Positions 804 through 34,836 of a stretch of 35,190 nucleotides of DNA are shown one piece after another. The translations under genes and the position numbers were made by a program. This stretch comes from a virus (Duplodnaviria > Caudoviricetes), in the IMG/VR virus record IMGVR_UViG_3300033067_000862, positions 1 through 35,190 of that record. One strand, given 5' to 3'. Below the pieces are notes generated by a model. It searched no databases and was not told where the DNA came from. It saw only the letters and a program-made list of their open reading frames with translations. Position 1 is the stretch's first letter; every line of letters starts with the position of its first letter.

Positions 804-1936
804 AATTCCCCCATAAGTTTTTCAATAAGATTAATCCGTTCACCGATGTATCGCATCACTGGCACTGGCATTGAATTGCCGATCGCCTTGTATCGAGCGC
901 CATCGGGTGTTTTTTCCGAGATACGGGTATAATTGTCCGGGAAGCCCTGCAGGCGTTCGCATTCAATCGGCATCAGCCTGCGAACGCGCATTTTTGCATC
1001 CATCACGCCTTCATGGCGACCGCCATTCCCGCCCCTCTGGATAGTTCCAGCAAGGTCTACGTGGGCATTTAATTGTTCAGACCATCCAATGGTGCAAACC
1101 GCAGCGGTGGCGTTATGCTGCGCTCCTATCGCATGACAGATATCGTTTGATGATATCGGGTCTTGTGTTGGGTGAAATGCAAACGGCACAAGCGGTGTTC
1201 CGCGCCCTGTCCCATCCTCACTGGCATCAAATCCATCGCCACGCAGGGTGTGGGTTATCAGGTTTTCTGATCCTCCACCAATATCCCCGCCATTGGCTCT
1301 TAAGGTTCCGACCCCTTCGCTGTATCCTCCAATGCTTGACGGAGTAAAGCAGGCAGTGTCTTTTTGCGTTTCTCTGCGCGGCGCAGGATTCCACGACATG
1401 CTCTGGCTGTCAAAAAGTACTGCGGCGGGAGGTCGCCAGTCACCAAGATATCCGACAACGAACACACGGCGGCGGCGCTGTGCCAATCCGAAATATTGAG
1501 CGTCAAAAACCCTGTAGGCGAACCCATACCCGCACTCTGCCAGCCCCGCGAGGAAGGTTCCAAAACTGCCCCCCCCTCCTTTAGCTGACAGGACTCCGGG
1601 GACGTTTTCCCAGACCAACCACTTTGGCCGCAGGCGCTGAGTAAGTTTAACAAACTCAAGTGTGAGATTGCCTCGCTCGTCAGCAAAGCCTTTTCTAAGC
1701 CCAGCGACACTGAAGGCTTGGCACGGTGTTCCACCGACAAGAAGGTTAATTGGTTCATAGTCGTTTTCCTTTATCGTTGTAAAATCGCCATGGCATGGCA
1801 CGTCTTTGTAGTGGTGCTTAAGCACTGCGCGCGGAAATTTTTCAATCTCACTGAAAAACGAAGGATTCCAACCCAGCGGATGCCATGCGACTGTTGCGGC
1901 CTCAATACCTGAGCAAATGCTGCCGTAAATCATCAT
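800..1936 (-). CDS. DNA (cytosine-5) methyltransferase
   Basis: Motif I SICSGIEA, IV GGTPCQAFS, VI ENVPG, VIII QRRRRVF, IX RRLMPIECERLQGFP, X YKAIGNS. Confidence 0.96.
   Translation of the reverse strand: MMIYGSICSGIEAATVAWHPLGWNPSFFSEIEKFPRAVLKHHYKDVPCHGDFTTIKENDYEPINLLVGGTPCQAFSVAGLRKGFADERGNLTLEFVKLTQRLRPKWLVWENVPGVLSAKGGGGSFGTFLAGLAECGYGFAYRVFDAQYFGLAQRRRRVFVVGYLGDWRPPAAVLFDSQSMSWNPAPRRETQKDTACFTPSSIGGYSEGVGTLRANGGDIGGGSENLITHTLRGDGFDASEDGTGRGTPLVPFAFHPTQDPISSNDICHAIGAQHNATAAVCTIGWSEQLNAHVDLAGTIQRGGNGGRHEGVMDAKMRVRRLMPIECERLQGFPDNYTRISEKTPDGARYKAIGNSMPVPVMRYIGERINLIEKLMGEL
1300..1758 (-). CDS. Overprinted ORF in the +1 frame of the C5-MTase, resembling the M.EcoHK31I beta polypeptide
   Basis: 152 aa open frame; AGGA SD 8 nt upstream of the ATG; C-terminal CSLSDILVTG..PPQYFLTARACRGILRRAEKRKKTLP..LRQAL resembles (from recall) the alternative-frame beta subunit family. 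Confidence 0.7.
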   Translation of the reverse strand: MNQLTFLSVEHRAKPSVSLGLEKALLTSEAISHLSLLNLLSACGQSGWSGKTSPESCQLKEGGAVLEPSSRGWQSAGMGSPTGFLTLNISDWHSAAAVCSLSDILVTGDLPPQYFLTARACRGILRRAEKRKKTLPALLRQALEDTAKGSEP

Positions 1937-2229
1937 TAGCCCCCATTTTCAAGTTTATGGGCTTGTCGCAATATTTCATTCCTATATTCAGGTGTTGTGT
2001 ATCCGAAAGTGCTAATATTAGCAGCCATTCTCATTCCCTTGATGATGCCAAAATTTTCAGATTGCATCACAAGTTTTGCCTCTGCTTCCAGCCGCAGCTC
2101 GTGCTCTTTTTCGGCACGCTCTTTCCATGCTTTTAAATCATGCTTTAACTGCTGTATTTCTTTATGATATTCAGCAATCTCTGGCTCATAAATAATCCGC
2201 TTAAAGTCTGATAACTCGGTCATTCGCAT
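1936..2229 (-). CDS. Hypothetical protein with coiled coil
   Basis: 97 aa, charged heptad-like segment, stop overlaps the MTase start. True start may be the second Met (2223). Confidence 0.7.
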   Translation of the reverse strand: MRMTELSDFKRIIYEPEIAEYHKEIQQLKHDLKAWKERAEKEHELRLEAEAKLVMQSENFGIIKGMRMAANISTFGYTTPEYRNEILRQAHKLENGG

Positions 2230-2747
2230 CCCCTTCCAAGGCCTGTTTTTGGATCAGTATCGGCGGTGAATTTTTCCCAATGCACCCACCCTTGTGGGCA
2301 GTGAAATCCCCACTGTCTCACCCGCGGCCCGGTAATAAAAATGGTAGTTACTGGCACGTTTTCAGTTTTGCCACGTTCATTCGTATCACAGCGCATTAAT
2401 TGAATTCGATGAGCTGATTTTGCACTTCGTAAATAAACAAAACCCTCTTGTCGCAGATTAGGTATGCATCGGTTTCCCCAAACATCCAACTTGAATGGCA
2501 CCCATTCAAAATAATCGCCATCTAACAACACCGATGCATTCCACCATGGATGGTCATGTAGCGCCCGGTCATCATCGCTGCGCAGGAACCTGTGAAGGTA
2601 GATATTGAACCAGCGGTTGCGCGGGATGATATGCCAGCGCTTGAGGTATGGCCTATCCTCGCCACCGATCACAACATCGGGCGGTGATTGCATCCTCTTG
2701 TTTGCCCAGCTCAGAAGCGTTTTGCGGATAAAATTTGGGATTTTCAT
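2220..2747 (-). CDS. Cupin-like phage protein
   Basis: LHRFLRSDDDRALHDHPW...DGDYFE...AHRIQL...TIFITGP resembles cupin metal-binding motifs; SD AAGGA upstream. Confidence 0.8.
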   Translation of the reverse strand: MKIPNFIRKTLLSWANKRMQSPPDVVIGGEDRPYLKRWHIIPRNRWFNIYLHRFLRSDDDRALHDHPWWNASVLLDGDYFEWVPFKLDVWGNRCIPNLRQEGFVYLRSAKSAHRIQLMRCDTNERGKTENVPVTTIFITGPRVRQWGFHCPQGWVHWEKFTADTDPKTGLGRGCE

Positions 2748-5634: not shown

Positions 5635-5663
5635 TTGCGTAATATGGCGATTTGTGGCATCTT
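5635..5663 (+). promoter_or_regulatory. Candidate rightward promoter
   Basis: TTGCGT-17 nt-CATCTT with extended -10 TG; weak match. Confidence 0.35.
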
Positions 5664-5697
5664 GGGATGCGTAATCCCACCCGCACTGGAGTCTAAA

Positions 5698-7053
5698 ATG
5701 GCAGAATTAAAGATTAAATGGACTGAAAAAACGGCAAAATTGACCGATTTGAAGCCATATGAACGCAACCCGCGCAGCATCACAAAGGCTGCGTTTAATA
5801 AGCTGAAATCCGCGATTGAAGATTTGGGCTATCACCAGCGGATTATCGTGCAGCCTGATTTGCGGGTTATCGGTGGTCATCAGCGTATTCGCGCCTTGCA
5901 TGAGCTTGGTATTGAGGAGGTGACCATTCTCATTCCCAGCCGCGAGCTCACCACCGAGGAATTCCGCAGATTGCTTGTGCAGGATAATTTGGCCTTTGGC
6001 GACTTTGATATGGAAATCCTCGCCAATGACTTTGACAAAGAAGAATTGCTGGACTGGGGCATGCCGCCTGCGATGATTGACGCATTACCGAATTCGGTAG
6101 AGGAAGGCCTCACCGATCCTGACGATGCCCCCCCCCTCGAAGCCACGGTTATTGCCCAAGAGGGAGATGTATTCGTGCTGGGTGACCATCGCATCATTTG
6201 CGGGGATTGCACCAGCGCGGACGTGGTGCAGCGTGTTATGGGTAAGGCGAAGCCTTCGCTTATGGTTACCGACCCACCCTATGGCGTGGAATACGACCCT
6301 TCATGGCGTGAAAAGGCAGGCGTTGGCGGCACTGGCACGGCCAAGGGCAAGGTTTTAAACGATGACCGCGCAGACTGGAGCGAAGCGTGGGCTTTGTTCC
6401 CCGGCAACGTGGCTTATGTCTGGCATGGTGCGCTGCATTGCCCTGTGGTGGCGCAAAGCCTTGAAAGATGCGGTTTTAAAGTCCGGGCGCAGATTATCTG
6501 GGTAAAAACCAGAGCTGCCCTTTCTCGTGGGCATTATCACTGGCATCACGAGCCTGCCTTGTATGCCCAGAAGCCTGACACGGATGATGGATGGCGTTTT
6601 GGTGACGACCATGAGGTGGCTGCCTATACCGTGCGTGAGGGAGCCGCTAATGCAAAATGGCGGGGTGGCAGGAAGCAGACGACCGTCTGGTTTATTGACC
6701 ACATGAAAAACGACACAGGCCACGGAACCCAAAAGCCTGTCATGTGCATGCAGCGCCCGATTGAGAACAATTCAGCCAAAGGCGATTTTGTGTACGACCC
6801 ATTCCTTGGCTCTGGCTCCACCCTTATCGCTGCCCAAATGACAGGCCGTAAATGTATCGGCAGCGAATTAAACCCAGCGTACATGGATGTCATCATCCGG
6901 CGCTGGCAAAACTTCACGGGTCAAAAGGCTATTCTTGAAGCCACTGGCCAGACCTTTGAAGACCTTGAGACGGGCGGTCGTACTGCGAAGCCTGAGGCCG
7001 CAAGTAAAACGAAGGCTAATAATATCAAAAAGCCATCAAATAAGAAAAAATAG
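5698..7053 (+). CDS. ParB/Srx-like N-terminal domain fused to an N6-A/N4-C DNA methyltransferase (beta class)
   Basis: LKPYERNPR...IGGHQRIRA (ParB-like); TDPPY precedes YDPFLGSGST; HGTQKPV; start reassigned to ATG 5698 after GGAG. Confidence 0.92.
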   Translation: MAELKIKWTEKTAKLTDLKPYERNPRSITKAAFNKLKSAIEDLGYHQRIIVQPDLRVIGGHQRIRALHELGIEEVTILIPSRELTTEEFRRLLVQDNLAFGDFDMEILANDFDKEELLDWGMPPAMIDALPNSVEEGLTDPDDAPPLEATVIAQEGDVFVLGDHRIICGDCTSADVVQRVMGKAKPSLMVTDPPYGVEYDPSWREKAGVGGTGTAKGKVLNDDRADWSEAWALFPGNVAYVWHGALHCPVVAQSLERCGFKVRAQIIWVKTRAALSRGHYHWHHEPALYAQKPDTDDGWRFGDDHEVAAYTVREGAANAKWRGGRKQTTVWFIDHMKNDTGHGTQKPVMCMQRPIENNSAKGDFVYDPFLGSGSTLIAAQMTGRKCIGSELNPAYMDVIIRRWQNFTGQKAILEATGQTFEDLETGGRTAKPEAASKTKANNIKKPSNKKK

Positions 7054-34290: not shown

Positions 34291-34836
34291 CTATGGCTTA
34301 AAGATGGTTTTTGTTTCTTTGGCACCGAAATGATACCATGCGCAGTTATCCATTCCGGCCGTGCCATTCTCCATCCACGACACGCGCCCGACCGAAACGA
34401 TGGCGGAGCAATATTTCAAGAACGGCTTGGCCTGCTTGGTGTGCATCCAGTCAGCATCAAACAGCAGCCACGTTGGTGCCTTTGCCCGGAACAGGTTAAT
34501 CATGTCGTGTAGTGCGCCCGTGCCATCTTCATTGCGTGACCATGGCGGGTTGGTAATGAAAAAATCCGCAGGCGGGAATTCGCCATCAAAAAACAGCACA
34601 TCGCGCTTAACAATGCCTTCTTTCTGTGGCTCCAGATCGCAGGCATAGACGCACTGGCCATTGTGCTTTTCCAGATGGCTTATCAGCAGGCCATCGCCTG
34701 CGCATGGCTCAATGAACGTATAACGCCTTGGCAGGTGCTTGAGCAGCGGCACGACCGCTGAGTATGGGGTTCGATAGTAATCCCTCTCTACCCGCTTAAA
34801 ATCGCTCCTTTTACCCATTCGGCTCTGGCTCGACAT
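34291..34836 (-). CDS. Small DNA N6-adenine methyltransferase
   Basis: DYYRTP, FIEPCAGDG (SAM binding), ITNPPW (catalytic). Confidence 0.9.
   Translation of the reverse strand: MSSQSRMGKRSDFKRVERDYYRTPYSAVVPLLKHLPRRYTFIEPCAGDGLLISHLEKHNGQCVYACDLEPQKEGIVKRDVLFFDGEFPPADFFITNPPWSRNEDGTGALHDMINLFRAKAPTWLLFDADWMHTKQAKPFLKYCSAIVSVGRVSWMENGTAGMDNCAWYHFGAKETKTIFKP

Follow-up and report, generated by a model that had tools for sequence, protein, structure and literature searches.

A gene nested in the +1 frame of a phage C5 cytosine methyltransferase gene is under its own selection and probably encodes a second enzyme chain

The DNA analyzed here (the window) is the whole 35,190-base stretch of a myovirus-like phage record that is 79% complete. 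Its minus strand carries a gene for a C5 cytosine methyltransferase, which matches the Pfam family PF00145 with an E value of 8e-56. By the established motif names for these enzymes, the encoded alpha chain contains motifs I, IV, VI, VIII, IX, and X in order within one chain and has a Rossmann-like fold (Table 1). A second ORF, read in the +1 frame, is nested in this gene and covers alpha codons 60 to 211, that is, motifs IV, VI, and VIII as well as 50 residues past motif VIII; the last codons of motif VIII and the five that follow, read in the +1 frame, form the start of the core of its product, beta. An initial annotation of the sequence had proposed this 152-codon ORF over motifs IV-VIII as an overprinted gene with its own ribosome-binding site, and its description of the locus was verified. 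An AGGA, part of AAGGA, lies 8 nt before the internal ATG, which sits in the main-frame TAT codon of Tyr60, and beta ends close to where the variable region begins. Motifs IX and X both lie in the main frame, as had been stated, and their core residues are 82-96% conserved there among 57 non-redundant genes.

Table 1. Positions of the two chains and their elements in the window.
Feature	Position	Strand	Basis or remark
Main (alpha) chain, C5 cytosine methyltransferase, 378 aa	800-1936	minus	motifs I-VIII, variable region, IX, X
Nested +1-frame gene (beta chain), 152 aa, ATG start	1300-1758	minus	ORF calls, selection, homology
Shine-Dalgarno-like AAGGA ahead of the beta ATG	1767-1771	minus	read from sequence
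Beta residues 73-79 (WQSAGMG)	1522-1542	minus	predicted pairing with alpha edge strand 140-143
Beta core 99-143: linker (LSDIL...YFL, 101-116) and two helices	1330-1464	minus	predicted packing on alpha motif IX
Alpha motif IV, catalytic Pro-Cys (PCQ, 71-73)	1718-1726	minus	sequence; invariant in relatives
Alpha motif VI (ENV, 110-112)	1601-1609	minus	sequence and relatives
Alpha motif VIII (QRRRRVF, 153-159)	1460-1480	minus	sequence and conservation
Alpha variable region	986-1303	minus	low model confidence, mosaic among relatives; target recognition expected here
Alpha motif IX (residues 318-337), main frame	926-985	minus	sequence and conservation
Alpha motif X (residues 347-368), main frame	833-898	minus	sequence and conservation

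The alpha variable region ranges from 19 to 415 aa across 48 relatives (L055-L130) and seems to be a mosaic built of short modules, which have TL-like starts and include SEDGTG as one common block. We take this mosaic to be reminiscent of multi-specific phage methyltransferases. Upstream of the methyltransferase gene and in the same strand run, an ORF at 2220-2747 (minus) matches phrog_4786, labelled cysteine dioxygenase (E 1e-55). Elsewhere, a ParB-N6/N4 methyltransferase ORF lies ahead of the terminase genes (5635-7053, plus), a methyltransferase-related ORF matches phrog_799 (34291-34836, minus), and the C-terminal end of an IS1595-family (ISXO2-like) transposase is found at the edge of the record (1-195, plus). 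A scan of the window ORFs with PHROGs, in a record 79% complete, gave no family match to a restriction endonuclease.

Relatives were sought with the main protein in order to avoid selecting for the nested ORF. Scanning 29 of 64 parts gave 595 confirmed viral loci, and we retained the best 80. Every one of these 80 loci has a single uninterrupted +1 ORF across the beta profile. The start codon is in the same place throughout (65 ATG, 15 TTG); Shine-Dalgarno-like words precede 45 of the 65 ATG starts, and AGGAG precedes all 15 TTG starts. Trp73 of beta is invariant among the relatives. The layout is that of the window in 72 loci, while the C-terminal part is not detectable in five and lies in a separate ORF in three. 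At L100, L123, and L160, motifs IX and X are found in a third, +1-frame ORF apart from alpha and beta, which represents either an assembly error or a three-chain form.

For 57 non-redundant genes, including that of the window (less than 90% nucleotide identity, mean 71%), we compared the reading frames. Within the overlap, the +1 frame contains no stop in 7,964 codons, compared to 365 stops in the +2 frame; outside the overlap, the +1 frame has 108 stops in 3,078 codons upstream and 488 in 10,405 downstream. If synonymous codons are drawn at random with the main protein held fixed, 6.7 +1 stops per gene are expected, and 0.66 of the 57 genes should have an open +1 frame, whereas all 57 do. For the window, 5.2 stops are expected, and one of 2,000 draws left the +1 frame open. 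Diversity at four-fold sites is 0.30 inside the overlap (58 sites) versus 0.68 outside (35 sites; p 2e-13), with a minimum of 0.13 over the beta core, and the 100 codons upstream of motif VIII are constrained as well (0.42 and 0.28 versus 0.69). Thus, the absence of +1 stops and the synonymous-site constraint that the initial annotation had named as checks were both found. Furthermore, it is only in the +1 protein that silent changes lead to conservative replacements (+0.39 BLOSUM, CI 0.15-0.64; controls about 0), and over alpha residues 159-205 the conservation of beta exceeds that of alpha (0.74 versus 0.66). The common ancestry of the 57 genes inflates these counts, which are not independent events, but the frames are contrasted within each gene. 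Taken together, these results confirm that the nested ORF is under its own selection and that both frames are selected. Contigs of sequencing run X1 match the window with zero differences, but X1 may be the source sample, so that this match is not independent. In runs X1 and X2, contigs of many other sequences stack on positions 1402-1563, the dual-coded core, at 85% identity, which agrees with the high nucleotide conservation of the core.

Searches with beta against Pfam and PDB sequences gave no match, and Pfam together with NCBIfam yielded only weak LptM matches that we took as chance. Beta profiles found no methyltransferase match for the core among PDB sequences; one such search matched motifs IX-X only. 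PHROG 16143, 'DNA methyltransferase', was matched with an E value of 5e-6, which indicates that some annotators have called such ORFs. Matches in the ESM Atlas were confined to viral clusters (score 0.97), with a recognition value under its mark. The family itself is large: 1,011 of 1,088 candidate proteins pass an E value of 0.001, and a profile search returned 5,680 representatives at 50% identity, 4,016 of them at E 1e-10. By tblastn, 132 phage records and 530 plasmid records contain matches, mycobacteriophage Omega and P1-like dmt genes among them. Another 83 loci were located via beta (80 genome contigs and three records), and 75 of them share the layout of the window. The claim that standard annotation misses the second chain stood for most records checked: only the main frame is annotated in P1, RCS47, three streptococcal phages, Lactococcus phage 4268, Caulobacter phage J4, and the EcoHK31I copy described below. 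It did not stand for Paenibacillus phage Likha, where a nested CDS of a more distant type is annotated.

An alpha/beta methyltransferase, M.EcoHK31I, was reportedly described by Lee, Kam and Shaw in 1995, and the nested product had been noted to resemble its beta chain in a sequence pattern. The accessible parts of PMC2836561 and PMC3404938 present M.EcoHK31I (YGGCCR) as an alpha/beta C5 methyltransferase; according to the former, activity requires both chains and is obtained from two separate genes. A primer from the supplement of PMC2836561 has matches in 81 of 5,426 E. coli genomes and led us to a near-identical RefSeq copy (L218) with ORFs of 309 and 176 aa. Their ends agree with the primers in PMC2836561, and one residue differs in the primer-covered part of beta. 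Against this real sequence the proposed likeness holds: hhalign pairs EcoHK31I beta 10-108 with window beta 45-145 (probability 98.2%, E 3e-14), and BLASTP finds 30% identity over 76 aa. In both systems the second gene is nested in the +1 frame over motifs IV-VIII with a homologous beta core in the same register, and the N-terminal domains of alpha are homologous. They differ, apart from the level of beta identity of about 30%, in the placing of motif IX and in their surroundings. EcoHK31I beta ends in motif IX, which its alpha chain lacks, as the initial annotation had said and L218 verified, and it matches PF00145 at 234-298 (the motif IX tail); the window has motif IX in alpha, and its beta has no PF00145 match. 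EcoHK31I also adjoins an endonuclease gene, whereas none was recognized among the scanned ORFs of the window, a phage record. Our first idea that the published motif IX of EcoHK31I beta is a misread core was ruled out, since beta in L218 ends in a complete motif IX.

Truncations of EcoHK31I beta, as given in the accessible part of PMC2836561, bear on the shared core. Activity falls starting at residue 37, is nearly absent in vitro by residue 41, and drops a second time between residues 69 and 70, and every truncated form keeps motif IX. In the same system, three starts had to be removed. EcoHK31I residues 37-43 correspond to window beta 73-79, and the truncation sites align with W73-M78 and L105.

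Single-chain phage enzymes carry an L-x-D-x-L-E...Y-Y/F-L-S segment shortly past motif VIII. In the window, this post-VIII linker is carried by beta and is lacking in the main chain: the SPbeta-type linker had no match in window alpha (E 0.28 and 0.73) and was found in the +1 frame. Correspondingly, the beta profile matches single-chain linkers with an E value of 1e-5, compared to 0.73 for the alpha profile, over a short segment of about 25-30 residues. Matches between whole-protein beta and single-chain enzymes are modest (E 7e-5 and 0.002), and in the comparison with KP15 the best match fell on motif IX rather than on the linker (E 0.008). The single-chain enzymes M.HhaI, SPbeta-type (L221), and KP15 (L225) share the catalytic fold and motif order of window alpha. 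The linker of the SPbeta-type enzyme matches window beta 101-131, and the KP15 segment at the linker position aligns with HhaI at about 195-212; unlike in the window, the single-chain enzymes have the linker in the main chain and a closed +1 frame.

We then scored the linker motif in an outgroup, for which 200 of 215 loci could be parsed into 45 non-redundant genes (cut-off 8 bits). It was found in the main frame of 24 genes, in the +1 frame of 11, in neither frame of 10, and never in both; reversed-segment controls scored 0. The +1 frame is closed in all 24 genes with a main-frame linker. This test is partly circular, because the underlying alignment (A6) was chosen by the beta-core profile, four of the 11 +1 cases belonged to the training set, and one SPbeta seed pattern is the motif itself. 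The 10 genes with no detectable match also indicate that the post-VIII linker is not universal.

The position of the core in related layouts is consistent with a linker function. In a related gut family (80 loci, L435-L514), 42 loci have an alpha chain that ends 27-94 residues past motif VIII and a +1 chain that runs from the beta core through the variable region to motifs IX and X. There, the core stands ahead of the variable region, IX, and X, which is its place in a single chain and supports a linker role. The remaining loci comprise 12 with motifs I-IV in the beta frame as a separate ORF, 24 that are incomplete, and two that are different; in the 12, the motif I-IV ORF ends near the beta start, so that they are either broken alleles or a three-piece form. 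The accessible part of PMC3404938 describes M.AquI (CYCGRG) as two polypeptides, with the distal variable region and motifs IX and X on the small chain. It is therefore similar to the window enzyme in having two polypeptides with a break after motif VIII, but window beta contains no distal variable region, IX, or X. By the same description, the 42 gut-family loci show an AquI-like partition with a deep +1 overlap.

We also compared predicted structures. The alpha model superimposes on M.HhaI with a Z score of 25.3 (rmsd 2.6, 229 aligned residues). The prediction of the alpha-beta complex that had been proposed as a check scored 0.84 in three of three runs, while none of three controls scored above 0.00; the contacts agreed to at least 64%, and the partner had a pLDDT of 70 or more. 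The mark applied to this score is reached by 116 of 157 solved pairs versus 2 of 215 mismatched pairs and is only roughly valid with the alignments used here. The surest predicted contacts join beta 75-79 to alpha 140-143, which forms a strand in the alpha model, and beta 104-115 to motif IX residues 319-325. This score supports alpha-beta binding, falling short of proof, and may partly reflect likeness to solved single-chain enzymes. A natural fusion of beta with motifs IX and X (P0078), folded alone, gave a pTM of 0.29 with confidence in two helices only, and a fold search with this model was uninformative (best Z 3.2).

We conclude, with a probability of roughly 0.75, that translation of the nested frame begins at a start of its own and yields a small chain, which by prediction folds onto the methyltransferase and completes it. 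Beta would be made from its own ribosome-binding site. Its residues 73-79 are predicted to extend the catalytic sheet by lying against its edge strand, and residues 104-115 to form an arm that packs on motif IX and ties the small domain to the large one. Beta is thus likely to be an obligate structural subunit, as judged from these predictions, and the enzyme without it would have little or no activity. The heterodimer could act as an orphan enzyme that methylates cytosine in phage DNA, probably shielding it from host restriction, which is the usual role of phage orphan methyltransferases. The initial annotation had suggested that the second chain is kept for another role, structural or regulatory. 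The structural alternative is favored; that this is another role is not, as it is probably the role common to beta cores, since motif IX is only an optional tail.

Four other explanations were weighed against this reading. The best of them, though unlikely, is that beta is translated and bound but only accessory, stabilizing or tuning a working alpha chain, for example by setting the timing of methylation through stoichiometry. The main chain might indeed work alone, because it has all catalytic motifs together with IX and X (motifs I-X in one chain); alpha by itself models as an HhaI-like fold, and the separate ribosome-binding site of beta fits this reading as well. It is difficult to reconcile with a linker that never occurs in both frames of the 45 outgroup genes, with the retention of beta in all 80 relatives, and with the loss of activity upon EcoHK31I truncations in the common part (PMC2836561, accessible part). 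We consider it still less probable that beta mainly contacts DNA, sets specificity, or inhibits alpha via its basic helix (120-133). This helix is among the most invariant parts of beta (A120, G123, L125, R127, A128, R131), and most of its residues lie outside the confident alpha contacts in the predicted complex, which was modelled without DNA. But a role in specificity is unlikely for a helix that is near-invariant although the variable regions differ so widely in length, and streptococcal and lactococcal betas end before the helix. Ribosomal frameshifting near motif VIII, yielding an alpha-beta fusion instead of a separate chain, is very improbable. A +1 shift at motif VIII would produce a single chain of normal order in the 42 gut-family loci, but the +1 frame of the window stops before the variable region and the shifted product would lack IX and X. 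Moreover, the constraint extends over the 100 codons upstream of motif VIII, the start and Shine-Dalgarno sequence are conserved, and EcoHK31I works from two separate genes according to the accessible part of PMC2836561. Least probable of all is that main-frame conservation produces the ORF as a by-product, or that it marks an RNA/DNA element: motif VIII codons read in the +1 frame do give CSL-like residues even in some single-chain genes, but this is largely refuted by the absence of stops, the closed +1 frame of genes with a main-frame linker, the higher conservation of beta, and the bias of silent changes described above.

The two-frame arrangement extends to phage P1. As in the window, the dmt genes of P1 and P1-like elements (L228, L137) keep motifs IX and X in the main frame, and their +1 ORF is intact and encodes the beta core; they differ in being fused to a Dam-type domain, and the records annotate the main frame only. 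In the dmt gene of phage RCS47 (L137:898-4185), a long intein-like insertion follows directly on the catalytic Cys of motif IV, with beta intact downstream in the +1 frame. In Lactococcus phage 4268 (L229:1423-1980), alpha stops 28 residues past motif VIII and beta just past the linker, and neither contains IX-X.

The end of motif VIII (VFVVGYL, VFIIGHL), read in the +1 frame, gives CSLSDIL, which resembles the start of a single-chain linker. Because of this mimicry, motifs could shift between frames repeatedly. In a quick unrooted tree of 48 main chains, which is possibly biased by overlap constraints and does not give the direction of change, the two-frame state changes five times, at least three of them forced by well-supported branches. 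Staphylococcal phage IME-SA4 and its kin group loosely with the two-frame genes and have the linker in the main frame. These phages (L222, L233-L235, L240-L243, L245, L249, L273) contain a +1 ORF of roughly 100 codons that is open up to motif VIII and homologous to the N-terminal part of beta; the main-frame linker was scored for L222, L234, L245, L249, and L273, and two close kin, L251 and L271, have lost the +1 ORF. The layout looks like a reversion or a further split, and the ORF is either a retained module or a recent relic.

Two-frame coding may be a major and labile design of phage C5 methyltransferases, with P1 making an unrecognized, needed Dmt subunit, a proposal whose chances we regard as evenly balanced. 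In that case, repeated moves between frames, involving the linker as well as the variable region and motifs IX and X, would have given single-chain, EcoHK31I-type, AquI-like, and core-only enzymes, and also apparent reversions in which a separate N-terminal beta peptide survives. The principle of overlapping frames is already known from M.EcoHK31I. In the open-access literature, only EcoHK31I and AquI were encountered; it yielded no account of a core-only beta, of so large a family, or of motif placement being labile. Neither did we find a description there of the nested gene in P1 dmt, and the accessible parts of PMC12707154 and PMC6070908 contain no description of the nested gene.

A 30-year-old curiosity thereby becomes a large family of 5,680 clusters at 50% identity, and the common N-terminal core, not motif IX, is indicated as the purpose of the second chain. 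In codon-optimized or recoded versions of such genes, the hidden chain would be lost, a possible reason for inactive constructs. The family also provides a natural setting in which to test directly how overlapping genes arise and revert within an enzyme, with the laboratory phage P1 among its members.
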